NCBI GenBank assembly: GCA_944332265.1
Contig: CALVJQ010000004.1
Location: 1,840 to 65,839, forward strand
Source of the DNA: an uncultured Bacilli bacterium
GTDB lineage: Bacteria; Bacillota_I; Bacilli_A; RF39; UBA660
Direction of reading: 5' to 3'
Length of the DNA: 64,000 bases
Under the pieces are notes generated by a model. The model did not search any database. It was not told the DNA's origin and was given only the letters and a program-made list of their open reading frames with translations. How positions within the stretch are numbered: the stretch's first letter is position 1; every line of letters starts with the position of its first letter. Shown here in pieces: positions 144-54,737 of this stretch. The translations under genes and the position numbers were made by a program.

Positions 144-623
144 TCACTCCTTCCCTTCTTTTTCAAGTAGCTCTAACAAAGGAGCTAATCTTGGATCTAA
201 CTTTTTTCTTTCTTCATCTACTAGTTCCCAACCTTCACCTTCAAGGTGATACTTTTTATCTGGTTCACGACGAACACTAATTGGGACCTCTAGTACAATA
301 TTTTGCCATAAAACATCCATAATATCAAGTGTTTTTAATTCATTTTGATCCTTTTCATCATCATTTTCACTTAATACTTCTGATATTTCGAAACTAAATG
401 GATAATCTAACGGTTCTAAATCTATAGCATCTAATAACACCATAACACCTTCAACATGACAATCAAAAACTATTTCATTGGTAACACTATAATAAGCTCT
501 ACCTTTTATTTTTACATTATCTAATTTTTGTATTGGTGTATTCTTTATATATTCGTCGCCAAAAGATACTATATCATCAATTACAATACCTTTTTCATCG
601 ACTTTAGCTAAATCAATATACAT
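144..623 (-). CDS. YceD/YlbN-family DUF177 protein
   Basis: 159-aa acidic ORF directly upstream of rpmF, the conserved DUF177-rpmF arrangement. Size is typical of the family. Confidence 0.7.
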
Positions 624-715
624 CTATATCACCCACTAGCCACATAATTATACCAACTTTTCTTGAATAATACAACTTATTATAATAAAATAAAAACTAT
701 AAAGAAGGTGTTTCT

Positions 716-1834
716 ATGAATATCATTGGTATTATCGCTGAATACAATCCATTTCATAATGGACACATATACCATCTAAAAAAAATAAAAGAAAAATATC
801 CTAATTCTCTTATTATTCTAGTACTAAATGGTTATTTTACTGAACGAGGTACTATTTCCGTCCTATCTAAAGAAGATAAAGTAAAAATTGCTTTAAATCA
901 TGATATTGATATTATAATTGAATTACCTTTTGTTTATGGAACTCAAGCCTCAGATATCTTTGCTTATCAAAGTATCAAGCTTTTAAATGAATTACAAATA
1001 GATCATCTAATCTTCGGTAGTGAATCCAATGATCTAAATCTCCTAAATAAAATAGTAGATATCGAATTAAATGATCCTTCTTACGAAAATAAAGTTAAAC
1101 AATTTCTAAAAGAAGGAAATAACTACCCAACTGCTATGAAAAAAGCTCTTAATATAAAAGAAGATATTAATAATCCTAATGATTTATTAGGAATCTCCTA
1201 TATAAAGGCAATAAGAAAGATAAACCCTACTATAATACCTGAAACAATAAAAAGAACAACTGATTACCATGATATTCTATCTGATCAAGAAATAGTTAGT
1301 GCAACTAATATTCGCACTAGACTTCAAAACAATGAAGATATTTCTAAATACTTACCAATCTCAACTATTCCTTTTCTAAATAATATATCTAATGATAATT
1401 TATTTAGTCTTTTAAAATTTAAAATTCTAACTGATAAAGACTTAAGTCTTTATTTAGATGTTGATGAAGGTATTGAATATCGTATTTTAAAAAATATTAA
1501 TATATCTAAAAGCTTTGACGAATTAATTAGCAATATAAAAACTAAAAGATATACATATAATAAAATAAATCGAATGTTAATCCATATTCTAATTGGTTTA
1601 ACTAAAAATGATAATCAAAATGTAAAATTAGATTATTTAAAAATCCTTGGCTTTAATAAAAAAGGTCAAACCTATTTAAATAAAATAAAAAAAGATATTT
1701 CCCTTCCAACCACTCCACCTAAAGATTCTCTTCTATGGCAATACGAACTAAAAGCAGCTTATCTTTATGAGCAAGCAACTAAAAAGAAACTAAACAATTT
1801 TGATTTAAAAAATATTCCAATAAAAAAAGGTTAA
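716..1834 (+). CDS. tmcAL: tRNA(Met) cytidine acetate ligase (YlbM/UPF0348 nucleotidyltransferase)
   Basis: N-terminus MNIIGIIAEYNPFHNGHIYHLKKIKE carries the HxGH-type nucleotidyltransferase motif typical of TmcAL. Length is 372 aa. An SD (AAGAAGGTG) precedes the ATG. Confidence 0.7.
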   Translation: MNIIGIIAEYNPFHNGHIYHLKKIKEKYPNSLIILVLNGYFTERGTISVLSKEDKVKIALNHDIDIIIELPFVYGTQASDIFAYQSIKLLNELQIDHLIFGSESNDLNLLNKIVDIELNDPSYENKVKQFLKEGNNYPTAMKKALNIKEDINNPNDLLGISYIKAIRKINPTIIPETIKRTTDYHDILSDQEIVSATNIRTRLQNNEDISKYLPISTIPFLNNISNDNLFSLLKFKILTDKDLSLYLDVDEGIEYRILKNINISKSFDELISNIKTKRYTYNKINRMLIHILIGLTKNDNQNVKLDYLKILGFNKKGQTYLNKIKKDISLPTTPPKDSLLWQYELKAAYLYEQATKKKLNNFDLKNIPIKKG

Positions 1835-10759: not shown

Positions 10760-13700
10760 TTAAAATAAACTTAACTGATTACTTTCTGACATATTATCTA
10801 AACAACCCAAAGCTTTTAATTTTTCCATTGAAGAAGTATTAACTTTTCCACGGTTTCTTAAATCTTCCATTGAAATAAATGGTCCACCTTGGCGTGCTTT
10901 TACTATTGCCAAAGCAACGTTTTCACCTAAGCCATCTAATGCTCTAAAAGGAATAATTAAACCTTTTTCATCTTCAGTAATAACAAACTTTTTACCATCA
11001 CTTTTATCAACATCAATATTTTTAAAATAAAAGCCACGACAAACCATTTCTAAACAAATACACAAAGTTTCACGTGTATCAATTTCTTTATTAGAAGCAC
11101 TATTTCCCTTAGCATCTATTTCATCAATCTTAGCTCTAATTGCATCTTCTCCCTTAATCATCGATTCAATATCAAATTGATCACGACGAATTGATAAATA
11201 AGCACAATAATATAATATTGGATAATGAACTTTAAACCAAGCAATTCTAAAAGCTGAAGTTACATAAGCTGTCGCATGAGCCTTAGGAAACATATACTTT
11301 ATTTTACGACATGATTCAATATACCAATCAGGAATACCTGCTTCTTTCATCGTTTTAGCATGTTCAGCCCAAGCTGCCGGATCTTTTGAAGCTTTTCCTT
11401 TACGGACAAATTCCATTATTTTAAATGCTTTAGCTGGTTTCATCCCCCAAGCTATTAAATTAACCATAATATCATCACGACAACCAATTACATTCTTAAA
11501 TGGAACTTGAATTACTCCCTCAGCATTTGGTGTACATAAATCTCGAGCATTCCCTAACCAAACATCAGTACCATGAGACAAACCAGAAATTTTAATAAGT
11601 TCAGCAAATGTTGTTGGTTTAGTCTCCTCTAACATTCCAAGCAAGAAAGATGTTCCAAATTCTGGTACTCCCAAAGTTCCAGTTGGACAATACTTTCTTC
11701 CATCTTTATCAGTTAATCCTCTTAAACGATAGCGATCAACTCCCAGTATTTCCGGACCAGTAAATATCTTCATAGTATCTAAGTCACCTAAATCAATTGC
11801 TGTGACATCAAAATTATACTCACCATGTGTAATATATTTATTAGCTAAATCTTGTAACATACGTAAGACTGTCGGATCATCGTGTCCTAGTATATCTAAT
11901 TTTAATAAATCCGCATCGATAGCATGATAATCAAAGTGAGTCGTACGCCAAGCTGCAGTTGGGTCATCAGCTGGATATTGAAAAGGCGTAAAATCCCAAA
12001 TATCTTTATATCCTGGAACTACAACAATACCTCCAGGATGCTGACCAGTCGTTCTTTTAACCCCTGTACATCCAACAGCAATTCTTTCTACTTCTGGTGT
12101 GCGTACAAAAGACTTAATAATCCCTTTCTTTTTTAATTCGTCTTTACTATTAACAGCTAAACCATAGCTTTGAGCTTCTATTTTTAATATATCATGTAAA
12201 CGTTCTTCATAAAAACCTTGAACATAACCAAAAGCTGTCTTATCTGCAACTGTTCCAATCGTTCCAGCACGATAAACATTATCTGTTCCAAATAAGACCT
12301 TAGTATATTCATGAGCTGCTGCTTGATTATCTCCCGAGAAATTAAGATCTATATCAGGTACTTTTTCTCCAGCAAATCCTAAGAATGTTGCAAATGGCAT
12401 ATCATTACCTTGATGAATCATTACAGCCCCACACTTCGGACATTTTTTCTCTGGTAAGTCAAAACCAGAAGGATAATTTTCTGAATATGGAGTTCCATCA
12501 TCATCATTAAACTCACTATGTTGACAATCTGGACAATAATAATGCGCAGGTAAACCATTACATTCTGTTATTCCCATCATTGAAGCTACAAAAGACGAAC
12601 CAACAGAACCACGTGATCCAACCAAATAACCATCGTCATTAGAATGCTTAACTAATTTTTGCGCAATTAAATAAATTACATCAAATCCTCCACCAATAAT
12701 TCCTGTCAATTGTGCTTTAGCCTTTTCTGTTGCTTCATCATCACTCATTGGTTCAGTTGCAGTGCGTAACACCTGCTCTTTTTTTAACTTAACAACTCCA
12801 TCATAACCACTCATTATAACTTCATGCAATGTAGGCGTAAATATCTTATTAATTTCCTCTTCACTTATACCAGGATGTTCAATTGCAATCTTTTCTTTAA
12901 CTAAATCATTTATCTTATCGCCATAAAATTCTTGTGCAATACGTTCTTCAATATTATCTGGTAAAGGATCTCCATACATGCTATGAGCTTTAGCAAATAC
13001 CATATCACGACATGTTTCTTGAGAATGCTCTATAATAGGTGAATAAGGCTTATCAGGATAAACAACAACTTCTATTTCCTCAATCATATCTAAAATTTTA
13101 TTAGGATTATCAACAACTATTTCTTTTATTAATTCCTCATCTTCTAAAAATGCGAATTCTTCTTTCATTTCCTTAGTAGTTCTAAAAAATTGATTTGGAA
13201 TATGTCCCGAATTAACAACATCAGAATCATTATAATTACCATTTAAAGAATAAACATTATCTTTCTCTTTTATAATTCCTAAAACATTTAATTTTCTAAG
13301 AGCACTACTAATAGCTTTTAATTTTTCACTTTCTCCATCTTTACCTTTAAAAGCTTCTTCTAAGCTTTCACTTTTATTAGGAACATATATATAAGCTAAA
13401 TTTAACGCCGTTATTGGTATCCTTTTAACTTTTGTTAAAACATAAATATATCTTAAGACTTTTTCTTCTACTTTATTTAAAGTACTACCTTGTTCTTTAG
13501 CTTTTTCAATATTTCTTATAATATTATCTTCATTATTATTTCTTTTACTAACTCCATTTAAATACCTAGCTAAAGGATGTCTTCCCTTTCCAGGAACATT
13601 CTGATTAACAATAATTTCTCTATACAGACGATCCTCTCTATTAATATTATGAACATCTCCTGTTGCAACAACTAATTTACCAGCTTTTTTAGCACAATTA

Positions 13701-16552
13701 ATTATCTTCTTTAAAGCATAATGCAAATGTTCAATATTATTAATGTCATGTCCACGTAATAAATGAGAATAATTTTCTGGTGGTTGAACCTCAATATAAT
13801 CATAAAATTCCATAGCTTTAATTAAATCTTCATCAGAGCGAGTCAATGCTATATTAAATATTTCCCCATTTAGACATGCACTACCAACTAATAATCCTTC
13901 CCTGTTTTCTTCAATTAGCCTTCTAGGTATTCTAGCATTTCTTTGTAAAAAATTAGTATTAGCAAAACTAACTATTTTAAACAAATTCTTTAACCCTACT
14001 TTATTCTGTGCAATAAATGTTACATGTTTACCATTATCATATATATTAGCAATATGCTCCTTATAATTTTTTCCTGGAATATTTTCATACATTTGTAACC
14101 AATCATCTTTACACCACTCATATTTCCAACGATACTCAGTATTGCTAAATTTAATAAAAGGATATTCTTTTATTTCTGTATCATCATTCTCTTCTATCTT
14201 AGTTACATAATTCTTTATCGTACTTAATTCACCAATATGATCTAATAACTTCTGATTATTTTTAAAACTAATTTCTTCTAAAAGTCCAAGATTATTTAAG
14301 TCACTTAACTTTTCAATTCCACTAATTTGATTTAACATCTTATTAAAAATATAGCCTGTATTTTCTGAGTCGACATCAGCACCATGGTGTTGTCCAACAT
14401 AAATAACTAAAGTTAAACTTTTTTCACCAAAATCATCCATATATTTAATTTCGATATCATTTTCTGCAGGATGTAATTTAATTTCTGGTTGAAAATCAAT
14501 TAAAGTTATTCCCTCATTAACTTCAATTACTAAATTAATTGATTCTGTCTTAGCAGCTTTATGTAAAGTATCTAAATGATATATATTACGATATTTTTTT
14601 ACTCTTTCCTCTGTTGTAATATCGACATCATAATATTCTTCTTTTTCAATATTTAATATCTCTTCACCATCAATTTTGATACTTTTAAAAGCTTCGCCAA
14701 CAGCTGAATCTAAAATAGTTCCACTATAACCAGATTCATTCACTGTCTCCTCATCATCATCTGCTTCACCTGTATCTATTCCATAAAATTTACCTAATGC
14801 TTTTAAACTATGTTTTTTTAAATCACGATTAATAACTCTTGATAACATTAGCGTATCAATAATTGGATTATTTAAATTACCTAATCCATATTTATAATAT
14901 GCCATATCCAACATATTTTTATCAAAACGAGCATTATGAGCAACTAAAGGTAAATTACCAATCCATTCTTTAAAACGTTTAACTACTTCTTCTTCAGGAC
15001 TTGCATCTTTAACATCATCATCACTAATATCTGTAACTCGTGTAATCGCCTCATCAATATGATGTCCTGGATTAATCAGTTCATCAAAACGATCAACCAC
15101 TTCACCATTATGGATTTTTACACCACCTATTTCAATCATCGAATCGCCTAAGCCGGGATTAAACCCCGTTGTTTCAGTATCGAATATAACAAAAGTATTT
15201 CCTTCTATTTTTTCATCATTTGGATTAAAACAAACATTCAAATAAGATTCACACATTTCAATCTCAGATCCGTATCCAGCTTTAAAGAATTTAAGATTTT
15301 CCTTCTCTTCCATAGCATTAGCTATCATTTTTTCCATTTCGGCAATTCCTTCTTCATTGCCAGATTCTTTTATCTCTTCTAATGATTTTTTTAAATCATC
15401 TATCTTAGCTTGCGCTTTTTTCTTCAACCCTTTATTGTAAGAAGTAACTTCTCCAAAAACATGTGGAAAAGATTGACAACAATCATGATCAGTAATAGCA
15501 ATTCCTGCATGTCCCCATTCAATAGCTTGCTTAACTAGTTTAACTTCATCACACACTCCATCCATCTGACTCATCATTGTATGTGCATGTAATTCTACTC
15601 TTTTTTCATCTTCATTATCAGTTCTTTTAAAACTCGGAATTTCTTTTAAAGGTTCATAACTTCTAAAATTAAAAACTAAGTCATCGGCAAAGTTATCATA
15701 TCTAACTTGGCCTTTAAACTGAAACCATCCACTTTTTAATTCTTTTGACTTAGCTAAAAAATCTTCTTCATCTTTCGCAAAACATTTAGCTAAAATACTC
15801 GATGTATTATCACTTATTTTTAATGTTATTAAAAATAAATCCCTTCCATCTTTAGTTTTCAATTGATTAAATTCCGAACCAAAAACATAAGCTTCAAGAT
15901 GAACATTATTCTCTTCTCGATCAATACTATCTATTGTAATTACCCCTTCACGAGAGTAATCAATTTTCTTTTTAGGTACCCATCCATTACTCGAAGAATT
16001 AACTACTTCTTCATAAGTTACCTCAATTTTACGATTACGATCTTCAATAATTTCTTCTTGAATTTTTCGCTCATTCTCTTTATTGATTTCCGTTACAATA
16101 TCCATTTCATAAAAGCCTAAGTCTACTAAACCCTGACTTAAACCTTTAACTTCTTTAGCTAGAATATCAGCTTCTTCACTTTTACTATCTAATTCAACTA
16201 TTATATTATCGCCATCTATCCTAATATTCTTATTCTCCAAAGATACTAAAGACGGTCTTTTAACAATTAATTCTCCTAATAAGACTTTAAATGCTTCTAA
16301 AATATCTTTATCATCCATATCGCTATATATATAATGGATATAACATTTATTTTTACCATTAATTCCATTTAAACCACATTTAAGTAACTCCGAAGTTGCA
16401 ACAGGAGAGATTGGCCAATCATTTTCAATAAAAACATCAAAAGATTGTTCTTTACGGTTTAAAATTACTTGTGAAATAGTCGCTTGACAAAAATCACCAT
16501 TTTTATCTTCATAGCCAACACTATTCAAAAATTTACTTAACTTCTCCTGCAT
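10760..16552 (-). CDS. polC: DNA polymerase III PolC-type, unusually long (1930 aa)
   Basis: PHP motif HAHTMMSQMDG..ITDHD. DEDDh exonuclease motifs FVIFDTETTG, VAHNARFDKNML and QHHGADVDSE. Zn finger CPDCQH...CPKCG. Polymerase core GSRGSVGSSFVA, DIDLNFSG and GVKRTTGQHPGG. C-terminal HhH region. GGAGG sits 7 nt upstream of the ATG. Confidence 0.95.
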   Translation of the reverse strand: MQEKLSKFLNSVGYEDKNGDFCQATISQVILNRKEQSFDVFIENDWPISPVATSELLKCGLNGINGKNKCYIHYIYSDMDDKDILEAFKVLLGELIVKRPSLVSLENKNIRIDGDNIIVELDSKSEEADILAKEVKGLSQGLVDLGFYEMDIVTEINKENERKIQEEIIEDRNRKIEVTYEEVVNSSSNGWVPKKKIDYSREGVITIDSIDREENNVHLEAYVFGSEFNQLKTKDGRDLFLITLKISDNTSSILAKCFAKDEEDFLAKSKELKSGWFQFKGQVRYDNFADDLVFNFRSYEPLKEIPSFKRTDNEDEKRVELHAHTMMSQMDGVCDEVKLVKQAIEWGHAGIAITDHDCCQSFPHVFGEVTSYNKGLKKKAQAKIDDLKKSLEEIKESGNEEGIAEMEKMIANAMEEKENLKFFKAGYGSEIEMCESYLNVCFNPNDEKIEGNTFVIFDTETTGFNPGLGDSMIEIGGVKIHNGEVVDRFDELINPGHHIDEAITRVTDISDDDVKDASPEEEVVKRFKEWIGNLPLVAHNARFDKNMLDMAYYKYGLGNLNNPIIDTLMLSRVINRDLKKHSLKALGKFYGIDTGEADDDEETVNESGYSGTILDSAVGEAFKSIKIDGEEILNIEKEEYYDVDITTEERVKKYRNIYHLDTLHKAAKTESINLVIEVNEGITLIDFQPEIKLHPAENDIEIKYMDDFGEKSLTLVIYVGQHHGADVDSENTGYIFNKMLNQISGIEKLSDLNNLGLLEEISFKNNQKLLDHIGELSTIKNYVTKIEENDDTEIKEYPFIKFSNTEYRWKYEWCKDDWLQMYENIPGKNYKEHIANIYDNGKHVTFIAQNKVGLKNLFKIVSFANTNFLQRNARIPRRLIEENREGLLVGSACLNGEIFNIALTRSDEDLIKAMEFYDYIEVQPPENYSHLLRGHDINNIEHLHYALKKIINCAKKAGKLVVATGDVHNINREDRLYREIIVNQNVPGKGRHPLARYLNGVSKRNNNEDNIIRNIEKAKEQGSTLNKVEEKVLRYIYVLTKVKRIPITALNLAYIYVPNKSESLEEAFKGKDGESEKLKAISSALRKLNVLGIIKEKDNVYSLNGNYNDSDVVNSGHIPNQFFRTTKEMKEEFAFLEDEELIKEIVVDNPNKILDMIEEIEVVVYPDKPYSPIIEHSQETCRDMVFAKAHSMYGDPLPDNIEERIAQEFYGDKINDLVKEKIAIEHPGISEEEINKIFTPTLHEVIMSGYDGVVKLKKEQVLRTATEPMSDDEATEKAKAQLTGIIGGGFDVIYLIAQKLVKHSNDDGYLVGSRGSVGSSFVASMMGITECNGLPAHYYCPDCQHSEFNDDDGTPYSENYPSGFDLPEKKCPKCGAVMIHQGNDMPFATFLGFAGEKVPDIDLNFSGDNQAAAHEYTKVLFGTDNVYRAGTIGTVADKTAFGYVQGFYEERLHDILKIEAQSYGLAVNSKDELKKKGIIKSFVRTPEVERIAVGCTGVKRTTGQHPGGIVVVPGYKDIWDFTPFQYPADDPTAAWRTTHFDYHAIDADLLKLDILGHDDPTVLRMLQDLANKYITHGEYNFDVTAIDLGDLDTMKIFTGPEILGVDRYRLRGLTDKDGRKYCPTGTLGVPEFGTSFLLGMLEETKPTTFAELIKISGLSHGTDVWLGNARDLCTPNAEGVIQVPFKNVIGCRDDIMVNLIAWGMKPAKAFKIMEFVRKGKASKDPAAWAEHAKTMKEAGIPDWYIESCRKIKYMFPKAHATAYVTSAFRIAWFKVHYPILYYCAYLSIRRDQFDIESMIKGEDAIRAKIDEIDAKGNSASNKEIDTRETLCICLEMVCRGFYFKNIDVDKSDGKKFVITEDEKGLIIPFRALDGLGENVALAIVKARQGGPFISMEDLRNRGKVNTSSMEKLKALGCLDNMSESNQLSLF

Positions 16553-34033: not shown

Positions 34034-37000
34034 TTAAATCTTCATTTCATATTTTCTTAATTTAATTCTTCCCTCTACTACAAATAAGATTAAAACAATA
34101 CCTAAAAGCCCACCAATAATCCATACACGATCATGTGTTTCAGGATTTATATCATTTGGTTTATTAATATCTTCTGCAATTATCGGTTCTTCAGAATACT
34201 TATTAATAAATAAATTATTATTATTTAAATATTCATAAACATTAGAAATTACTTTCATTGTTCCATCACCATTATCAAGTAATTCAATAGTTAATAAACA
34301 CTTACTTAAATCATAATAAATATGATTAGAATCACCTTTTACTTGAACAATCTCATATAAATACTTACCAGGTTTATTATAATTGATAGTTTTAAAAACA
34401 ATATCTCCCTCTAAATTATTATAAGCATAATCTATATAACCATTACTACTACCACTAGATATATCCTTAATCATAAATTTAAAATCTTTATCTTTTAAAG
34501 TATTATTTTCTAAAACTACCTTTACTTCTGGTAAAAAACTACCTTTAGTAACATAATTATTATTAAAAATAATTTGCATTGTCTCATCTTCTGTAATTCC
34601 AGTATAAATAATCTGTTTATTTTCATTATCTACTTGATAATTAAGATTATCTAATTTTACTGTATAATAATCTTCAATATCTTGAACAATCTTATAACTA
34701 ACATCTTTAGGAACATCTACTATCTTAATTTGTTCATCACTTTTTAAAGAAACATCGTAATTAATTTCTCCATTATCTAAAGATACCAAAGTTGTTATTT
34801 TATTATTATTTTTATCTACAACATCATAATTACCATTTATTCCAAATAAAGATATATGATAATTAAATGTTTTATCTTCATCGATATAATCACTACTATT
34901 TAAATTACCAATTATTAATCCATTAGGTATATAAGTATTATTAAAAGTAATTTTATCAACTAATTGATCTAACTTATTATAATATTTAACTTCCTTATTT
35001 AAATTACCCTCTCCATCATTAGTAACATTAACTACAACTTTATATGTCATCATATCATAAGATATCTTTGGCTCTCCTAAATCAATTTGCTTAATATAAT
35101 AAACAAACTGACCTTCAACATTATCAAAATTAATCGTTTTAAATTTAACATTTCCTTCACTATTAATTACTTGTTGATCAACATAACCATTATTATCTGA
35201 TAATTCTAAAGTAAATTGTTGATTACTTATTTCTTTATCATAAGTAACATTAGCTTCTAAATCTAAAGAAGTATTAACATCATAAACATTAGTAAATAAA
35301 TAATTTACCATTCTTTCTTCATTAGTTTTACCTTCTACTACAACATAATTATCTAAAGAAGAATTACTTACATTTACAGAAGTTTCATAACCTAAAACCT
35401 TTTCTTGTTTAATAACATAATCTATTCCACCAGGTAATAATCTTATAGTTAAACTATCATCACCTAAAATCATTCCTTCGTAATGACCACTACCATCTTC
35501 TAAGATTTCAAAAACACCAACTACTTCATTATCCTTATTAACTACATCATAAATACCTTGATTATCTACATTTCCTGATACTTCAATAATATATTTAAAT
35601 AATTTATTTTTATCAGCTAAATTACCATTTAATTGATTAGTAATTTTAATATCAGTAACTACCTGATATAAAGTACTTACTATATTAGTATCATCATCAT
35701 ATAACTTCAAAGAATTATCATAAGGATTAACTAAACTAATATGAGCACTACTTTTATACATTGTCCCTAAACTAATATCACTAGGTACTTGAACACTATA
35801 TTCAAAATTAAGATTTTCATAAGCATTTAAACTTGAAACATTCCATATAATAGTTCTTGCATCAGCATCATAAATACCACCATTATTAATAGAATCTTCT
35901 ATAACTATTAATCCATCTGGTACAATATCAGATACAACTAAATTATTAGCTACTACATTTGAATTATTATTAACACTTACACGATATTGATATATTTCAT
36001 CTTTTTTAATAATCAAAGAAGATACATCACTAAATTCTATAGAATCACTTGTCTTTGCATATTTATTATATTCTAAAGTTGGAACTTCTAACTTATTATA
36101 TAATGTTTTACTTAAATCATAGCTAAGATTATCTAATTCATTTAAGCTAATCTTAGTTTCCAATACTTGGCTAAAATCAATTTTATCTAAATCTATACTC
36201 GTCGTAATTTTAATATCAATACTTTCATTAGCTTCTAATTCATTTATATTAATAACTAATAACTGATTATCAAAAGTATAATCATTATTATAACTATTCC
36301 CTAACGAAGAAATGCCTTCAACATTATTTACCACTATTCCATTAGGAATTGTTATTTCTACTTTTAAGTTATCATAACTATATAAATTACTACTATTATT
36401 TATTTTTATTTCATATGATAAGTCATTATAAACTATAGCAGGTTGTTCATAAGTACCCAAACCAACATTAGTAGTAGCATCTAAACTAATTGTTGCCCTA
36501 TCTAAAGATACTTCAGTCATATTACTTTTTATAATATTATTAGAACCATTATTTATACTTTGATAATATAATACAGCATCATTATAAGCTTTTAAACTAT
36601 CCTTATAATTATTAGTAGCTTGCATTAATAAATCTACATGTATAGCTTTGTTCTCTTTTCCTTTAAAAATATAATCACCACAGTCAACTGCTATTGCTGT
36701 AACACTTCCTATATTTCCAGGTTTATTAGTTGACCAATCATCACCACTTAAATTAATATCTTCTAAATTAACATTAACATTTGTTGAATAATAAATAGTA
36801 GGATTTACCCCAATACTTTTTAAGTAGCTGATATCTACATCTCTTAAAATACCTTTAAAATAATTATTATCTACATAACTATTTTCTATTTTATCAACAA
36901 ATACTACATTTGAAATTTCTTCATAATCTGAACCTAAAATATATTGTAAACGATAACTATAATTATTACTTTCTGCAACTACCGTTTCACTATTAAATTC

Positions 37001-39580
37001 TAATTCATACTCATTTTTAGCATTTTTTTCATATTTACCTTCAACAACAACTATTTTATCTAATAGTGTATTATTAGTCATAAAAACTTTATTTTTCATA
37101 GTATCATCATTAATTAAATCATTATAAAGATTTTTAACATCACTATCACTAAATAAAGAATCAGATGCATCACTTACATTTATATATCCATCACTTAATG
37201 AACTACCACTTACATAAGCTATATCATTATATAAATTATTACCATAAGCTAAATTATTAGCATCACTGTACAATAGATTATAATTAACTATATAACCTGA
37301 TCCAATATAATTATCATTACTATAATAATTATTATCACTATCTATTTTAATAACTAATAAAGTTCTTAAACTATCATTATAATTAGTTAATTCTTCAATT
37401 TCATATTGAACATCTTCATTACTACCATATTTTTTTACAACTAATTCACCATCTAGTATAGCACCCTTTGGTAAAAGAATATAAAAAGTACCATTTTTTT
37501 GCTCTACTATCATTTTTTTTGCTTCATCCAAAGTTAATTTTCCATAGTTTAATTGTTCATAGACATAAGCAGTTAAACTAACTGAACTATTATCATCAAT
37601 TTTTTCATTAATAACACTTGAAATATTACTATAAGTATTACTAGTTAACAAAGTTAAATAAGTCGCTATATTATAATTATCCATTTCTTCATTATATTTA
37701 ATAAAACTATTATTTTTTAAAACTACTTCATTTTTATCTAAAGTATCAACATAAGAAATTATATCTTGATTAGAAACTAACTCTGTTTTAAAATTAATTC
37801 CCAAATAAATTCCAGCTCTTTTGCCAGTATATTTAACTTTTAATTCTCTTGTTCCTTCTGGTAACAATATAGGTTGATTAGCTGTAACATTATTATTAGA
37901 AGTCGTTCTATCATCAACAGCCACATAAACTATATTACCATTTTCATCTTTTTTATAAGTACCAATTAATTCATAATCATCAGCAATTTTAATATATACT
38001 TCTTTTTCTGAATATAAAGACATATCATTTTCTTGACTTAATACATAAGAATTACCTTCTAATAAATAATTATATTCAATATCATCTTGTGGATAAAAAG
38101 AAGTAATTACATAATTATCTTTTAAATTATAAGGATTCTCTTCATTATTATAAGAAGAATCTAAATTAGCTCCATTACTACCAACTTCAATAGTATAATC
38201 TTTTGTCCCATTTTCAGTTAAATTCCATAAATTAAATGCTTTATTTTCCCCTGTCAATTTATCAAGATCAGCTTCTACTAACCAATCAAAAGATATATTT
38301 TCTTGTTCATTAATCTTATTAATCGCTCCAATACCAGCTGTATCTGACAATAGCTCTTGTTTAATATCTGTACTTATTCCTACTGGGTAATTTATTTCTT
38401 CTTCATCTTCTAAACCATAACTAAAATGCCAATCAAATTCTTTATTAACAGTTCCTTGAGCAGAAGTTAAATTAGCTATTATTTTAAAATTACCATCTTT
38501 TGTAGTTGTACTATCATCTAAATTATAACCAACTACTACACCATAATTAATCATTGTAGGTATATTATATTCCATATTACAACTAATATTAGTAAGATCA
38601 TTATCATACAAATCAGAATTACAAACATAAGCTAGTATATTACCATCATTATTATCAATATCATAATTTAAAGAATATAATTCATTACCTAAAATAAAAC
38701 CTTGTACTCCATATTCTATATAAAAATCATATTCTTCTTGTAAAATACCCCATTTATCTTGCCAATCAGTATAAATTACCTCTTGATTAGCTTCTACATA
38801 TTCTAAATTTGCTCCAGCATCTTGTGGAATAGTTTTTATAAAAGATATATATGGGAAATCAACAAACTCAATATCTGCAAATGATATATATGGAAAAATA
38901 TCATTAGAATTATTAAGAACAATCTCACTAGAAACAAAGCTATATACTACATCAAAAGTAAAACTATAATCTTGGACACTCGTTAAAATGTCTTTATTAT
39001 TATAAATATAAATACTATATTCATCATACATCCATAAAAATTCATTTTCTAAACTAGAACAATCAGAAATATTATAATCACAATAAGCTACTTCACTAGG
39101 TAATTTAGCATATCCTAAAACTTTATCATCATCACTTAAAAATTTTAAAACATTACTCTCTTCATCAACTAATACTGGATATTCATATTGATTAGTAAGA
39201 AAAAGATATAGTGGCAAATTAAGCATAAATTCTTTTTCTTTAATATCAACTTTTAATGAATCATTTTCTAATATTCCCCAAGTTGACAATATTACTTCAT
39301 TATCTTCTAATACTTCGCTTGTTGAAGATATTGAAACTTGTGAACCATCATCACTAATTAAAACATTGCCATTATCTAAAACCTCTGATGCCATTTCCCA
39401 ACGACCATAATCCCAGCCATTTTCTCCAACCGAAATAAGTGGCGAAGTCTTATCAACTGTTACATCAAAAAAATACTTGTCTTTTACTAAAAAAGTAACA
39501 AATAATAACAATAAAAATAATAAACCAAATAATACTTCTTTCTTTATTTTATATTTCCCTAATACTTTCATATTTTTCAC
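34034..39580 (-). CDS. giant cell-surface protein (1848 aa) with DUF11-like repeats and pilin isopeptide-linkage/SpaA-like domains
   Basis: N-terminal signal-anchor (VLFGLLFLLLLFVTFLV). Two DUF11-like segments (YQYRVSVNNNSNVVANNLVVSDIVPDGL...). Two copies of the Spy0128-type module (QFTLELSDNNG..GNVKFKTINFDNVEGQFVYYIKQ..ISYDMMTYKVVVNV, and FKFMIKDISS..GDIVFKTINYNKPGKYLYEIVQ..IYYDLSKCLLTIEL). C-terminal NPETHD + TM + RIKLRK tail. Confidence 0.8.
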   Translation of the reverse strand: MKNMKVLGKYKIKKEVLFGLLFLLLLFVTFLVKDKYFFDVTVDKTSPLISVGENGWDYGRWEMASEVLDNGNVLISDDGSQVSISSTSEVLEDNEVILSTWGILENDSLKVDIKEKEFMLNLPLYLFLTNQYEYPVLVDEESNVLKFLSDDDKVLGYAKLPSEVAYCDYNISDCSSLENEFLWMYDEYSIYIYNNKDILTSVQDYSFTFDVVYSFVSSEIVLNNSNDIFPYISFADIEFVDFPYISFIKTIPQDAGANLEYVEANQEVIYTDWQDKWGILQEEYDFYIEYGVQGFILGNELYSLNYDIDNNDGNILAYVCNSDLYDNDLTNISCNMEYNIPTMINYGVVVGYNLDDSTTTKDGNFKIIANLTSAQGTVNKEFDWHFSYGLEDEEEINYPVGISTDIKQELLSDTAGIGAINKINEQENISFDWLVEADLDKLTGENKAFNLWNLTENGTKDYTIEVGSNGANLDSSYNNEENPYNLKDNYVITSFYPQDDIEYNYLLEGNSYVLSQENDMSLYSEKEVYIKIADDYELIGTYKKDENGNIVYVAVDDRTTSNNNVTANQPILLPEGTRELKVKYTGKRAGIYLGINFKTELVSNQDIISYVDTLDKNEVVLKNNSFIKYNEEMDNYNIATYLTLLTSNTYSNISSVINEKIDDNSSVSLTAYVYEQLNYGKLTLDEAKKMIVEQKNGTFYILLPKGAILDGELVVKKYGSNEDVQYEIEELTNYNDSLRTLLVIKIDSDNNYYSNDNYIGSGYIVNYNLLYSDANNLAYGNNLYNDIAYVSGSSLSDGYINVSDASDSLFSDSDVKNLYNDLINDDTMKNKVFMTNNTLLDKIVVVEGKYEKNAKNEYELEFNSETVVAESNNYSYRLQYILGSDYEEISNVVFVDKIENSYVDNNYFKGILRDVDISYLKSIGVNPTIYYSTNVNVNLEDINLSGDDWSTNKPGNIGSVTAIAVDCGDYIFKGKENKAIHVDLLMQATNNYKDSLKAYNDAVLYYQSINNGSNNIIKSNMTEVSLDRATISLDATTNVGLGTYEQPAIVYNDLSYEIKINNSSNLYSYDNLKVEITIPNGIVVNNVEGISSLGNSYNNDYTFDNQLLVININELEANESIDIKITTSIDLDKIDFSQVLETKISLNELDNLSYDLSKTLYNKLEVPTLEYNKYAKTSDSIEFSDVSSLIIKKDEIYQYRVSVNNNSNVVANNLVVSDIVPDGLIVIEDSINNGGIYDADARTIIWNVSSLNAYENLNFEYSVQVPSDISLGTMYKSSAHISLVNPYDNSLKLYDDDTNIVSTLYQVVTDIKITNQLNGNLADKNKLFKYIIEVSGNVDNQGIYDVVNKDNEVVGVFEILEDGSGHYEGMILGDDSLTIRLLPGGIDYVIKQEKVLGYETSVNVSNSSLDNYVVVEGKTNEERMVNYLFTNVYDVNTSLDLEANVTYDKEISNQQFTLELSDNNGYVDQQVINSEGNVKFKTINFDNVEGQFVYYIKQIDLGEPKISYDMMTYKVVVNVTNDGEGNLNKEVKYYNKLDQLVDKITFNNTYIPNGLIIGNLNSSDYIDEDKTFNYHISLFGINGNYDVVDKNNNKITTLVSLDNGEINYDVSLKSDEQIKIVDVPKDVSYKIVQDIEDYYTVKLDNLNYQVDNENKQIIYTGITEDETMQIIFNNNYVTKGSFLPEVKVVLENNTLKDKDFKFMIKDISSGSSNGYIDYAYNNLEGDIVFKTINYNKPGKYLYEIVQVKGDSNHIYYDLSKCLLTIELLDNGDGTMKVISNVYEYLNNNNLFINKYSEEPIIAEDINKPNDINPETHDRVWIIGGLLGIVLILFVVEGRIKLRKYEMKI

Positions 39581-44359: not shown

Positions 44360-44720
44360 AAAATAAAAGCTTAATAAGCCACGTTCTGTACCCCTAAAAG
44401 GGGTGGCAAATATTTATCTACCTATAAATAGGTCCTTTACCTCATTCTTAATTATCAGTAAAGACTCCCCTACCATAATTTGGGTTTCTCACTTGCGGGG
44501 TTTACCACGTTCCACTCTAAAGATTACTCCCTAGACTCGTCTCTTTGGCACTTTTATATCTAATTTAATCCCATAGGACTATTTCGAAGCCGTTAGTATA
44601 TAAAATACTACCTAAGGTTATTTTTTCCCTTAGCACAAACACTACAATCATCACAGACTGTGTGAGCTTGGACTTTCCTCTATGTAATAAATACATAGCA
44701 TTTGCCTAAAACCTTTACTT
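44360..44720 (-). ncRNA. rnpB: RNase P RNA (probably Firmicutes type B)
   Basis: The minus strand carries the universal P4 strands GAGGAAAGTCC (rc of ggactttcctc near 44670) and ACAGAACGTGGCTTA (rc of taagccacgttctgt at 44374..44388), plus GGTAAACCCC and a P1 pairing between the ends. The region has no ORF, and it lies downstream of gpsB as in B. subtilis. Ends are approximate to about 10 nt. Confidence 0.85.
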
Positions 44721-45922: not shown

Positions 45923-48601
45923 ATGGTAAATAACAAAAAGAATTCGACAAGTCAAAATAGCAAAAATAAAACTAACAATCAAAAATCACGAGCACTAATT
46001 ATTAGTAAAGAAAAAAACAATAAAAAGCCAATACCAAATAAAAATATTTCAACTAACAAACCAGTTGGTATTATAAAAGACAAAGTAAAAAAGAAAAAAA
46101 ATAAAGGTAAAATACTTAATGTAGTACTAAGTTTCTTAATGTTTACAGGTATTATCATAATGATAACTATGATGTTATTCTTTGGTTATATAGTCTTAAC
46201 TGCTCCAGAATTTGATACTGATTTACTATATAATAAAGAAGCAACAATCTTTTATGATAAAAATGGTGAAGAATTTGCCCGTGTAGGTTCTGAACAAAGA
46301 GAACTTAAAACATACGAAGAACTTCCTCAAGTATTAATTGATGCCATTGTTGCTACAGAAGATTCAAGATTCTTTCAACACAATGGTTTCGACGTTGTTC
46401 GCTTCGTTAAAGCATCTCTTGGTCAATTAACTGGTCAAAGTGGTGCCGGTGGTGCATCAACATTAACAATGCAAGTCGTTAAAAACACCTTCACTTCTAA
46501 AGAATCAGAAGGTATCAAAGGTATAATTCGTAAATTTACTGATATATATATGTCTATTTTCTTAGTAGAAAAAAATTATACTAAAGAAGAAATAATGGAA
46601 TTCTACGTAAATGCTCCTTATCTAGGTGCAAGTTCATGGGGAATAGAACAAGCTTCTCAATCATACTTTGGTAAATCAGTTAGTGATTTAACACTAGCAG
46701 AAGCCTCTTTACTTGCTGGTATATTTAATGCACCAGGTTCATATGACCCATTTATTAATCCAGATTTAGCATCCCAACGTCGTTCAATAGTTCTTAATTT
46801 AATGGTTAGACATGGTTATATTACCGAAGAACAAGCTGAAGATGCTAAAGCTATTACTGTTGAATCATTACTAATCGACCAAAAGACTTCTACTATTAAT
46901 AAATACCAATCTTTTATCGATGTCGTATGTTCCGATATTATGGAAAAATATGGTAAAGATATGGATCCGTACTCAGTTCCAATGGAAATATACACAACAA
47001 TGGATCCAGATATTCAAGATGTTTTTGTTGATTTAAATAATGGTAAACTAAATTACAAATGGAAAACTTATAAATACAACGACTATCGTGATAACATCCA
47101 ATTTGGTGGTATTGTTACCGATGTTCATGACGGTTCAATTAGAGCTGTAAATGGTGGACGTAATCAAACAACACCTAAAGCTTATAATCGTGCAACTATG
47201 TTAAAAACTCAACCAGGTTCTACAGCTAAACCTATATTCGCTTACGGGCCATACATCGAATATAATAACGGAAATACTGGAACTTTATTCTTCGATAATA
47301 AAATGACATATTCCAATGGTCAAGAATTAACAAATGCTGATAAAACATATATGGGAGCAATGACAATGCGTCAAGCACTTGCTCAATCACGTAATATCCC
47401 TGCTGTTCAAGCATTCCAAGCTGTAGACAAAAATAAAATAGCTGAATTTGTCCATAATTGTGGAATCGACTATGGAGAAAACCTATATGAAGCCTATGCT
47501 ATCGGTGGTGGACTAGAAGTCAGCCCAGAAGATATGGCAGCAGCATATGGTACATTCGCTCGTAATGGATATTATATAGAACCATATTCATATACTAAAA
47601 TAATCTTCCGTGAAACAGATGAAGTTGAAGAATATAAATATGAAAAAGTTCAAGCTATGAGTGAAGAAACAGCATATATGATAACTGATATGTTAATTAC
47701 CGCTACAAAGCAAGGTGTTGGAGGAAATATAAAAGTTTCTGGAACTCAAATAGCTTCTAAAACAGGAACTTCAACTCATAGTAAATCAGGTGTTCCTGAT
47801 GGAGCATCACAGGATAACTGGGTTATTACCTACTCTCCAGACTACGTTATATCTTTCTGGTATGGAACCGATTATCTAACTAAAGACGAATATACGCTAG
47901 CTTTAAATGCCGCTCGTGAAAGAAAATTAATATCGGCACAATTAGCTAACAATATCTATAAAAAGAATTCAAAATTTAAAAAACCAAGTGGTGTTGTATC
48001 TGCTAAATATGAAAAGGAAACAAACCCTGCTGAGCTACCATCTCAATACACTCCAGCTAGTTTGATATCAACTGAGCTTTTTAAGAAGGGGACTGAGCCA
48101 AGTGAGGTATCGGATCGATTTGACCAATTACAAGATCCAACGAATGGTAGCATTGAGATTAGTAACAATCAAATCAATCTTAGCTGGGATGCAATAGCAA
48201 CACCAAATGCTATAAATGCATCTTACTTACAAAATTACTTCAGTGAAAACTACGGACAATTTGCTTCAATGTATTTAAATAAAAGAAATTCATATAACAA
48301 TTCAAATATAGGAACGATAGGATATCAAGTATATCTTCAAACTGAAACAGGACTACAATCGCTCGGATATACAACTGATACATATTACGTATATAATGCA
48401 CCAAGTAGTGGGAATTATACCTTCGTAATAAAATCTGCATATAGTATATTTAAAGCTAATATGAGCCCTGGATTAACAATAACAGGAACTATTGAAGGAG
48501 CAATCCCTGAATTGCCAGATAATCCATCAATCGATAATCCTGATGGTGAAGGTGATGAAAATGGTGATCAAACAACCGAACCACCAACACCTATAACATA
48601 A
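45923..48601 (+). CDS. ponA: bifunctional penicillin-binding protein 1A (glycosyltransferase/transpeptidase)
   Basis: GT51 motifs EDSRFFQHNGFD and GASTLTMQ. Transpeptidase motifs STAKP, SRN and KTGT. Lys/Asn-rich cytoplasmic tail, TM segment, and a C-terminal Fn3-like domain. Confidence 0.9.
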   Translation: MVNNKKNSTSQNSKNKTNNQKSRALIISKEKNNKKPIPNKNISTNKPVGIIKDKVKKKKNKGKILNVVLSFLMFTGIIIMITMMLFFGYIVLTAPEFDTDLLYNKEATIFYDKNGEEFARVGSEQRELKTYEELPQVLIDAIVATEDSRFFQHNGFDVVRFVKASLGQLTGQSGAGGASTLTMQVVKNTFTSKESEGIKGIIRKFTDIYMSIFLVEKNYTKEEIMEFYVNAPYLGASSWGIEQASQSYFGKSVSDLTLAEASLLAGIFNAPGSYDPFINPDLASQRRSIVLNLMVRHGYITEEQAEDAKAITVESLLIDQKTSTINKYQSFIDVVCSDIMEKYGKDMDPYSVPMEIYTTMDPDIQDVFVDLNNGKLNYKWKTYKYNDYRDNIQFGGIVTDVHDGSIRAVNGGRNQTTPKAYNRATMLKTQPGSTAKPIFAYGPYIEYNNGNTGTLFFDNKMTYSNGQELTNADKTYMGAMTMRQALAQSRNIPAVQAFQAVDKNKIAEFVHNCGIDYGENLYEAYAIGGGLEVSPEDMAAAYGTFARNGYYIEPYSYTKIIFRETDEVEEYKYEKVQAMSEETAYMITDMLITATKQGVGGNIKVSGTQIASKTGTSTHSKSGVPDGASQDNWVITYSPDYVISFWYGTDYLTKDEYTLALNAARERKLISAQLANNIYKKNSKFKKPSGVVSAKYEKETNPAELPSQYTPASLISTELFKKGTEPSEVSDRFDQLQDPTNGSIEISNNQINLSWDAIATPNAINASYLQNYFSENYGQFASMYLNKRNSYNNSNIGTIGYQVYLQTETGLQSLGYTTDTYYVYNAPSSGNYTFVIKSAYSIFKANMSPGLTITGTIEGAIPELPDNPSIDNPDGEGDENGDQTTEPPTPIT

Positions 48602-52997: not shown

Positions 52998-54737
52998 CTA
53001 ACAAAGTCCATTACAATCATCGTCAACCACTTCTTCAGTTTCTTCAGGAGCGGATGCTACTGTTATCATAAATACTGTTCCATTAGTAATTGTATATCCT
53101 TCTGGTCTACTTTGTTTAAGAATTGTTCCTTCATCATAACTTGAATTTTCTTCATGTTTTATTTCTAAAGATATATTATATTTTTCACAGAATTTTTGAA
53201 CATCTTCTACAGTATAAGATCCATCAGTAAAATCAGGATACTTAGCAGCTACATTTGGAATATATAAAGTAATACTATCTCTTGCTCCTAACTTAGAACC
53301 AGGTTCAATATCTTGCTCAATAATTTCTCCATCATCATAATCTTCTGGATCTTTAACATCTTTCTTTTCAACATAAACTAAAATATTATGTGCTTCTAAT
53401 GCTCCTTTTACCTCTAAATAATTCTTTCCTGTATAATCTTCTATTTCGTATTTAGCATCTCCAGTTGAAACATAAATTGTTACAACAGTTCCTTCTGTTC
53501 TTTTAGCACCACTAGGTGGATTAGTTTTTACTACTTTTCCTTCTGGAACTTTATCATCGCTAATATCTACAGTTTTATCAGCAACTTCAAATCCCATATC
53601 CTGCAACTCTTTTACAACAGCACTTACCTCTTTACCAGACACTTCAGGTATAGTAATATCTTCACTATTTAAAACAGATGGTAAAAATAACATAAATGCT
53701 GCTACTATAACAATTAGTCCAACAAAAATAGCTGCTAAAATAACTAATATTTTATTTTCCTTTTTCAGTTCTGAATCACTAACTTTCTTAACTTCAATTT
53801 GTTCCTCATCATCATTTTCTACACTTATTGCTTTTTCAACTTGTTTCGTAAATTTCTTATTATCACTATCTAATTCTGGATATTGATACTCATAACGAGG
53901 TTCATTCAAACGCGATTCATCTAAACAAGTTTTTAAATCCTCATACATTTCTCGTGCATCATTATACCTATTCTTAGGATTCTTTGCTGCACTTTTTAAA
54001 ATAATATTTTCTACACTTTGTGGTAAATCAGGTAATTCATCTCTAATACTAGGTAAAGGCTCTTTTAAATGCTTCAAGGCAATCTCTACCGCATTATCTC
54101 CACGATATGGTAATTTTCCTGTTAACAATTCATACATCAAAATACCCATAGAATAAATATCACTTTTTAATGTTGAACCTTTACCACTAGCTTGTTCAGG
54201 TGGCAAATAATGAACACTACCCATAACTGAATTTGTTTGCGTAAGTTGCGTAGCATTCATTGCCATTGCTATACCAAAATCAGTTATTTTTACTAAACCA
54301 TTCTCCAAAATCATAATATTTTGTGGTTTAATATCACGATGAATAATATAAGAATCATGCGCAACAGACAATCCATCAGCAATCTGACTCATTATATCAA
54401 CAACTTCTGAGGTAGTTAATTTCCCACGCTTTTTTAACAAATCCTTTAAATTTTTTCCTTCAATATATTCCATAACAATGAAATATTGCCCATTATCGTC
54501 CCCAACATCATAAACTTCAACAATATTAGGATGACTCAAACTACTAGCATTCAAAGCTTCTCTTTGAAATCTTCTAACAAACTTTTCATCGTTAGATAAA
54601 TCTCCACGTAACACTTTTACTGCTACATCACGATCAAGTATAGTATCATAAGCTAAATAAACATTAGCCATTCCACCTTCACCAATTGATTTTATTATTT
54701 GGTAACGATCATTTATCTTTTGTCCTTTCATTATCAT
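52998..54737 (-). CDS. prkC: Ser/Thr protein kinase PrkC with PASTA repeats
   Basis: Hanks kinase motifs GEGGMANVY, HRDIKPQN and DFGIA. TM segment, then three PASTA-like repeats. ATGA overlap with prpC. Confidence 0.9.
   Translation of the reverse strand: MIMKGQKINDRYQIIKSIGEGGMANVYLAYDTILDRDVAVKVLRGDLSNDEKFVRRFQREALNASSLSHPNIVEVYDVGDDNGQYFIVMEYIEGKNLKDLLKKRGKLTTSEVVDIMSQIADGLSVAHDSYIIHRDIKPQNIMILENGLVKITDFGIAMAMNATQLTQTNSVMGSVHYLPPEQASGKGSTLKSDIYSMGILMYELLTGKLPYRGDNAVEIALKHLKEPLPSIRDELPDLPQSVENIILKSAAKNPKNRYNDAREMYEDLKTCLDESRLNEPRYEYQYPELDSDNKKFTKQVEKAISVENDDEEQIEVKKVSDSELKKENKILVILAAIFVGLIVIVAAFMLFLPSVLNSEDITIPEVSGKEVSAVVKELQDMGFEVADKTVDISDDKVPEGKVVKTNPPSGAKRTEGTVVTIYVSTGDAKYEIEDYTGKNYLEVKGALEAHNILVYVEKKDVKDPEDYDDGEIIEQDIEPGSKLGARDSITLYIPNVAAKYPDFTDGSYTVEDVQKFCEKYNISLEIKHEENSSYDEGTILKQSRPEGYTITNGTVFMITVASAPEETEEVVDDDCNGLC

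Follow-up and report, generated by a model that had tools for sequence, protein, structure and literature searches.

The 64,000-nucleotide stretch of DNA analyzed here (the window) comes from an uncultured low-G+C gut bacterium of the order RF39, close to Candidatus Coprovivens, and it encodes an exceptionally long PolC, the replicase essential to low-G+C Gram-positive bacteria. The extra length very probably consists of retained, constrained, lineage-specific insertion domains in a genuine replicase. Under this reading, folded domains would have been added stepwise in surface loops of PolC and kept in the mature protein, with each large insert predicted by modeling to be an independently folded module. 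At 1930 amino acids (aa), the protein exceeds the typical PolC length of ~1400–1480 aa and outstrips the solved PolC of E. faecium (9qpc_A, 1474 aa) by 456 aa, a departure that leaves the catalytic definition of the enzyme unaffected.

Judged by its sequence, the 1930-aa open reading frame (ORF) is a complete PolC-type DNA polymerase III with all catalytic motifs intact. A run of 1930 codons without a stop, set in flanking DNA of 26–30% G+C, excludes a chance origin of the frame. phmmer matched the protein at E = 0 to both solved PolCs, from E. faecium (9QPC) and G. kaustophilus (3F2B), and its 653-aa C-terminal block aligned to 9qpc with 725 bits. Pfam recognized RNase_T with a PHP stretch on either side of it, DNA_pol3_alpha, the finger domain and HHH_6, at 1.2e-52 for PF07733, 2.6e-22 for PF17657 and 1.8e-14 for PF14579. 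The PHP domain is split by a DEDDh (DnaQ-like) 3′–5′ exonuclease containing ExoI (FDTETTG, aa 457–463, with DTE at 458–460), ExoII (HNARFD, aa 539–544) and ExoIII (HHGADVD, aa 722–728). The C-family palm, fingers and helix-hairpin-helix (HhH) duplex-binding domain are likewise present, with the palm motifs GSRGSVGSS (aa 1312–1320), DIDLNF (aa 1400–1405, the catalytic aspartates of PDIDLNF) and GVKRTTGQHPGG (aa 1497–1508). The PolC zinc finger CxxC...CxxC corresponds to C1340/C1343/C1371/C1374, aligned to CPEC...CPKC of E. faecium and invariant in the clade of long PolCs described below; the ExoI, ExoII, ExoIII and C-terminal QLSLF motifs are invariant across that clade as well. QLSLF fits the sliding-clamp (β-clamp) binding consensus QL[SD]LF and is a putative clamp-binding motif. 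An OB region aligned to 9qpc residues 256–352, and the N-terminal 206 aa gave only a sub-threshold match to PF11490 (E = 0.0044, 17 bits against a cutoff of 26), PolC N-terminal domains being poorly conserved (PMC3919608). The order of parts is that of canonical PolC, with a putative N-terminal domain and OB fold followed by the exonuclease-split PHP, the palm and its zinc finger, the thumb, the fingers, HhH and QLSLF.

Insert boundaries were set by phmmer against 9qpc_A and refined by alignment with 74 related PolCs from GTDB genomes. Against 9qpc, the protein resolved into five collinear blocks (aa 207–365, 424–594, 842–996, 1112–1209 and 1278–1930), separated by gaps that hold inserts A, B plus C, D and E (Table 1); palm and fingers, in the last block, hold a further +59 aa. 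Refinement with the relatives placed B at aa 595–719, C at ~757–830, D at ~1000–1111, F at 1452–1482 (+28) and G at 1570–1581 (+9), and added H (+10). The first-pass annotation, made from the DNA letters alone, had credited the ORF with all catalytic blocks, at least five in-frame insertions between them (A–E) and smaller insertions in palm and fingers. Every motif that it quoted was found where it had been placed, the alignment gaps fall within a few residues of its A–E, and the alignments confirmed that the extra length is made of discrete insertions between intact catalytic blocks.

The long form recurs well beyond the window. An identical protein is present on 4 contigs, and its cluster comprises 115 member sequences; 118 full-length homologs (60–100% identity, 1890–1950 aa) from ENA, NCBI, JGI and Logan have these inserts too, at matching sites. 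Long PolCs were found in ~24 GTDB species representative genomes, one of them labeled Candidatus Coprovivens sp., whose protein is 81% identical to that of the window; Candidatus Coprovivens is GTDB UBA11963, order RF39, family CAG-1000 (PMC8035907). In a neighbor-joining tree built from core columns only, with insert lengths tabulated for 80 RF39-like relatives, the long PolCs formed one monophyletic clade on a long stem within RF39, with L018 as a deep member. This long clade alone has B, C, D, F and H. Insert A is shared with L032, L046 and others of the sister group as well as some other lineages, in a patchy distribution, and insert E measures 54–100 aa in all 80 relatives, including those with PolCs of ~1500 aa. 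In the sister group, the B site already bears an acidic extension of 8–9 aa, and the D site is longer by 4 residues. Insert E was gained first, order-wide, followed by A and then by B, C, D and F jointly on the stem of the long clade. Reference PolCs are without the segments flagged at first pass and close relatives carry them, so that the inserts are lineage-wide and misassembly is ruled out. Within the original set, B, C and D stood as features of the long clade alone; E, being present in all 80 relatives, and A, present in several shorter ones, did not.

Independent expansions were also observed elsewhere in RF39. L060 (polC ORF L060:5999-10951) has a 66-aa insert at the F site, and L028/29/30/38 have 95–100 aa at the E site together with an N-terminus longer by ~110 aa, giving a PolC of ~1670 aa. 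These independent insertions mark PolC loops as expansion hot spots, recurrent in the order.

The inserts are selectively maintained, less tightly than the core, as judged from substitution patterns. Across the 118 sequences, which reach down to ~60% overall identity, they show 50–66% mean identity to the query, with constant length and gaps of only 1–2%; the PolC core is 85–93% identical within the clade. The ratio of nonsynonymous to synonymous substitution rates (dN/dS) was obtained from the window and its 89%-identical relative only, where dS of 0.7–1.5 is near saturation and the ratios are rough; it was 0.08 for A, 0.14 for B, 0.17 for C, 0.14 for D, 0.03 for E and 0.03 for F, with 0.02–0.09 for core segments and 0.14 for the N-terminal domain. 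Such purifying selection is evidence of constraint, not of what the inserts do, and the accessory or regulatory domains suggested at first pass stay candidates.

Inserts B and C flank the last exonuclease motif. AlphaFold2 was run on isolated aa 590–845 with a 62-sequence alignment and returned a mean predicted local distance difference test score (pLDDT) of 82 and a predicted template modeling score (pTM) of 0.46, so the orientation of B relative to C is not fixed. Behind a linker with pLDDT <50 (model residues 1–20), B was modeled as an all-β domain of nine strands with pLDDT ~90, and it may form an immunoglobulin (Ig)-like β-sandwich. Its motifs SK(T/S)(E/D), LHPAxN and YVG are conserved. 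C was modeled as a compact α/β module, also with pLDDT ~90, with the ExoIII helix lying between B and C; its conserved motif is YPF...W.C...LQMYENIPxKT. The C region measures 97 aa; short relatives have 25 aa there and L018 has 48 aa. Foldseek of the B–C model against PDB and BFVD found nothing at E<1e-3, the best matches of this two-domain query (E ~0.004 or weaker, TM <=0.23) being mostly Ig, FN3 or BIG2-like. Pfam searches of B gave sporadic Ig-like matches in single members, for example FixG_C at 3e-5.

Profile searches found no family outside PolC for either module. In 1.84e9 representative proteins, a HMMER profile of B recovered one long-clade PolC, three short frame-shifted PolC fragments and one weak repeat protein, and the protein search with a profile of C returned only short fragments of such PolC genes. 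Against PDB sequences, neither profile matched anything significantly, and C had no Pfam match. By these searches, B and C are orphan modules confined to long-clade PolCs. One C-profile match on a long contig, P0128, was considered as a standalone homolog and rejected, as it is a piece of a frameshift-ridden polC. In L082:1-3500 (VOFC01006352.1, a 33.6-kb contig), a long-clade polC is split by frameshifts into many short ORFs, which probably reflects an error-prone long-read assembly; fragments of this kind account for the apparent 'standalone' insert homologs returned by short-query protein searches.

The ExoIII segment between the two modules is a canonical DEDDh part. H722, H723, D726 and D728 are invariant and aligned to HHRADYDAE of shorter relatives. 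The motif reads HHGADVDSE throughout the long clade except in its deepest member, L018, which has HHRADYDAE, as do all shorter relatives. The R-to-G and Y-to-V changes, located beside the catalytic His and Asp residues, track the full-length C module and not B.

Insert D occupies a PHP loop that holds 0–4 aa in all short relatives. The AlphaFold2 model of isolated aa 992–1118 (pLDDT 82, pTM 0.73, with helices and strands at ~90) begins with an N-terminal helix, followed by a core of three helices and a β-hairpin wing, with helices at model positions 36–51, 58–64 and 82–99 and strands at 103–106/109–112. D is accordingly laid out as a three-helix core followed by a wing, the arrangement that defines the winged helix-turn-helix (wHTH) fold, and is predicted from this model to adopt it. 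In a Foldseek search of PDB, the top matches (probability up to 1.0, TM 0.41–0.54) were nearly all winged-helix proteins, namely Fur/PerR, BrxC, MotA, E2F-DP, Rpa2, MukE and Mcm6. The resemblance of the end of D to a winged helix, suggested at first pass, is upheld by both model and search.

Among these, the wHTH1 domain of BrxC/PglY (Acinetobacter BrxC, 9ZDX/9ZLL) shares with D a helix plus winged-helix layout (Foldseek TM 0.48–0.54, probability 1.0). A profile of D matched BrxC aa 470–548 among PDB sequences at E = 0.024, and 12 of 25 clade D sequences matched positions 460–536 of the PADLOC BrxC model PDLC02471 at E 1.2e-6 to ~1e-3. The matched region is the wHTH1 domain, which comes after the AAA+ module, and a BrxC fragment with wHTH1 alone showed no DNA binding (PMC13326643). 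The Pfam BrxC family was not matched by D. Because the D of the window itself stays under the PADLOC threshold, the BrxC link is a lead, not membership. In contrast to BrxC, D has no AAA+ ATPase attached to it, nor does the case involve BREX genes; the winged helices of Fur/PerR, MotA, MukE and Rpa2 match D structurally about as well as that of BrxC. In a word-indexed protein database, the D profile found no short word-sharing homolog, a search that also missed the D-bearing PolCs and is uninformative for long proteins. No relatives of D were found in viral contigs.

The remaining inserts are smaller. Insert A, probably a K/E-rich helical hairpin to judge from its composition, is 51–58 aa long in the long clade and some shorter relatives and 17–18 aa in others, the site holding 9–18 aa in the reference and many relatives; Pfam returned only coiled-coil-like noise. 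Insert E is probably helical, and its profile had no significant match among PDB sequences. The F site holds 31 aa in the long clade versus 3 aa in short relatives. Insert G is found only in the window PolC and its nearest relatives (L001, L002, L006, L007 and L026), which have 18–19 aa at the site versus 10 aa, with a clade consensus of QDLSGIDVT (SGI where the window has ANKYITHGEYNF).

Table 1 Coordinates of polC, its inserts and landmarks, and the adjacent dnaE in the window; lengths in the reference are from phmmer against 9qpc.
Feature	Residues (aa)	Position (nt)	Strand	Length in reference	Description
polC	1930 aa	10760..16552	(-)		Single ORF, ATG start (ORF list)
Insert A	366-423	15284..15457	(-)	9 aa	PHP loop between ITDHD strand/helix and FKAGYGSE strand
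Gap holding B plus C	595-841			51 aa	
Acidic linker into B, GEADDDEETVNESGYSG	595-611	14720..14770	(-)		Net charge -7, predicted disordered
Insert B domain	612-719	14396..14719	(-)		Acidic all-β, ends three residues before ExoIII catalytic His
ExoIII motif and helix, VGQHHGADVDSENTGYIFNKML	720-745	14318..14395	(-)		Canonical DEDDh part between B and C
Insert C region	746-841 (net insertion ~757-830)	14030..14317	(-)		Junction of exonuclease and second PHP half
Insert D	997-1111	13220..13564	(-)	~0 aa	PHP loop flanked by GRHPLAR and IPNQFFRTT; slightly basic
Insert E	1210-1277	12722..12925	(-)	~0 aa	Palm start, between ...RIAQEF and IIGGGFDVIYL; acidic
Insert F	1452-1482	12107..12199	(-)		28-aa basic insertion in palm, precedes GVKRTTGQHPGG block
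Insert G, ANKYITHGEYNF	1570-1581	11810..11845	(-)		Recent, +9 aa
C-terminal QLSLF	1926-1930	10763..10777	(-)		Invariant in clade
dnaE	966 aa	16564..19464	(-)		Directly upstream of polC, 11 nt apart, same strand

As retained insertion domains, the inserts would serve as add-on, noncatalytic interaction surfaces, their placement on the whole enzyme being deduced from position along the chain. The whole protein is very acidic (net charge −84), the B domain carries −9 to −12 (~−16 to −19 with its linker) and, of the large inserts, D alone is net positive, at +3 to +4. Its winged helix and its basic character in so acidic a protein make D the best candidate for contact with DNA or a partner; sitting on the PHP domain, it would most plausibly touch duplex DNA or an acidic replisome partner. 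The end of B just ahead of the ExoIII His (IYVG-QHH) and the position of C after the ExoIII helix would put both modules at the rim of the proofreading site. In E. faecium PolC, this site lies below the thumb and binds 3 nt of single-stranded DNA (PMC12592400). B and C could affect entry of the primer 3′ end to the proofreading site or the docking of a partner there. The net charge of B with its linker makes DNA binding by B unlikely, and the acidic module could instead act on the primer strand, by repelling or guiding it, or provide a docking site for a basic partner.

A more austere account is contained within the reading of retained insertion domains, namely that the inserts are tolerated, essentially functionless loop expansions in AT-rich, fast-evolving RF39 genomes, which persist since their removal would destabilize the fold (constructive neutral evolution). 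We regard this account as possible without favoring it. Several observations speak for it or otherwise weigh against the interpretation given above. The inserts evolve 2–5× faster than the core, the dN/dS ratios are as rough as stated and, in some sublineages, B is partly deleted (85-aa variants) or C is halved (L018), so that these parts are not strictly required. The same-site independent insertions in L060 and L028/29/30/38 fit tolerance as well as function, and B and C have no homologs of known function. For D, the E-values of the structural matches are weak (0.04–0.65), and the window's own copy falls below the PADLOC BrxC threshold. On the other side, B, C and D are confidently predicted as compact domains, their dN/dS of 0.14–0.17 lies far below 1, insert length is held constant across the clade and the surface-type motifs LHPAxN, SKTE and LQMYENIP are invariant. 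Low-complexity filler is ruled out for B, C and D by their pLDDT of ~90; it is plausible for the linker at aa 595–611 and perhaps for A. Internal duplication of PolC parts was also rejected as a source of the inserts, as hhalign of each insert versus every other region gave probabilities <7%.

At the opposite extreme, the inserts might work as accessory modules of the replisome built into a PolC architecture without precedent, which may replace separate subunits of other Firmicutes. Here, a wHTH sharing ancestry with BrxC, a phage-defense ATPase, would have been captured into the PHP domain and would tether the polymerase to duplex DNA or a lineage-specific partner; B, grown from an acidic loop, would gate or regulate primer-end access together with C. 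We consider this fuller scheme unlikely.

It is more improbable still that the ORF is a specialized second PolC paralog, serving for example repair or a mobile element, and not the chromosomal replicase. Some Clostridia and Negativicutes do carry extra, atypical PolC copies (PMC3919608), but the long PolC has a core of 85–93% identity with dN/dS of 0.02–0.07, invariant catalytic, zinc-finger and QLSLF motifs, and a gene with dnaE on one side and polA on the other, in a housekeeping neighborhood. The best 80 of 507 genome matches, which extended down to 53% identity, included no second PolC from a long-clade assembly.

There is next to no chance that the inserts are inteins, degenerate mini-inteins or other splicing or homing elements, removed now or in the past. 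Inteins are known from C-family polymerases such as DnaE (PMC3919608). The PolC inserts are in frame and discrete, and the cyanobacterial DnaE split inteins likewise place in-frame extra segments in a replicative polymerase gene. However, Pfam matches to Hint, intein, LAGLIDADG or HNH were absent at E<=10 from inserts A–F, and none of these six inserts has an N-terminal Cys/Ser or a C-terminal His-Asn followed by Cys/Ser/Thr. The boundary residues are GEADD...YVG/QHH for B and YLNG...NSG/HIP for D. The β-sandwich, α/β module and winged helix predicted for B, C and D are not Hint folds, Foldseek gave no intein, and the inserts lie in variable surface loops outside the conserved motifs and are fixed clade-wide, not sporadic. 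The initial impression that these segments do not look like inteins was therefore borne out. An assembly or annotation artifact (a chimeric contig or polC fused with its neighbors), conceivable for a metagenome-type assembly, has a negligible probability given the 4 contigs with the exact protein, the 118 homologs from independent projects, the ~24 GTDB genomes and the 89%-identical relative with the same gene and a matching dnaE-polC...polA neighborhood on a 615-kb contig.

Around polC, the upstream dnaE has Pfam PHP, DNA_pol3_alpha, finger, HHH_6 and OB (a C-terminal OB fold), and polA lies ~1.7 kb downstream. The adjacency of dnaE and polC was discarded as an insert-linked trait, since it recurs in many RF39-like genomes with short PolC too. 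GC skew is strongly negative nearly throughout the window (1-64000, cumulative −11), and ORFs of at least 150 aa are almost all on the (-) strand; such extreme co-orientation is what a PolC-using Firmicute would be expected to show, and the window is probably contained in a single replichore. Rfam gave just one family above the gathering score for the window, an RNase P RNA of class B at 44370-44713 (-) with 276 bits, in keeping with a Bacillota origin. The window also encodes a class A penicillin-binding protein with transglycosylase and transpeptidase (45923-48601, (+)) and a PASTA-domain Ser/Thr kinase (52998-54737, (-)), on the basis of which the organism appears to make peptidoglycan; several relatives carry the database labels Tenericutes or Mycoplasma. 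An ORF of 1848 aa at 34034-39580 (-), the C-terminal third of which has Spy0128-like isopeptide (FctA), DUF7601 and DUF11 domains, probably encodes a pilin- or adhesin-like surface protein.

Compared with canonical PolC, the window enzyme has its PHP, exonuclease and palm regions interrupted by the folded B, C and D and the smaller A, E, F, G and H. The insertions of the bacterial RNA polymerase β and β′ subunits (SI1–SI3 in E. coli) may offer the closest analogy. Lineage-specific insertions in RNA polymerase are folded, mostly β-rich and located in surface loops, and they are lineage-fixed, evolve faster than the core and act in a modulatory, noncatalytic manner. RNA polymerase belongs to a different enzyme family, and its insertions were absent from the Foldseek matches of the B–C and D models. 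In the literature, we found no earlier description of such insertions in PolC, the length of which has been regarded as nearly invariant (PMC3919608).

Nothing in these results overturns the known catalysis of PolC, the departure being limited to length and extra domains. They indicate that PolC tolerates large domain insertions at defined loops, which is useful for engineering, tagging and mapping the free surfaces of the replisome, and the orphan modules B and C provide a case study of the origin of new domains inside an essential enzyme. PolC is a current antibiotic target (ibezapolstat, ACX-801; PMC12592400), and the long-PolC clade consists of common gut commensals. As candidate interaction surfaces, the inserts could have effects on fidelity, processivity or the susceptibility of RF39 bacteria to drugs.

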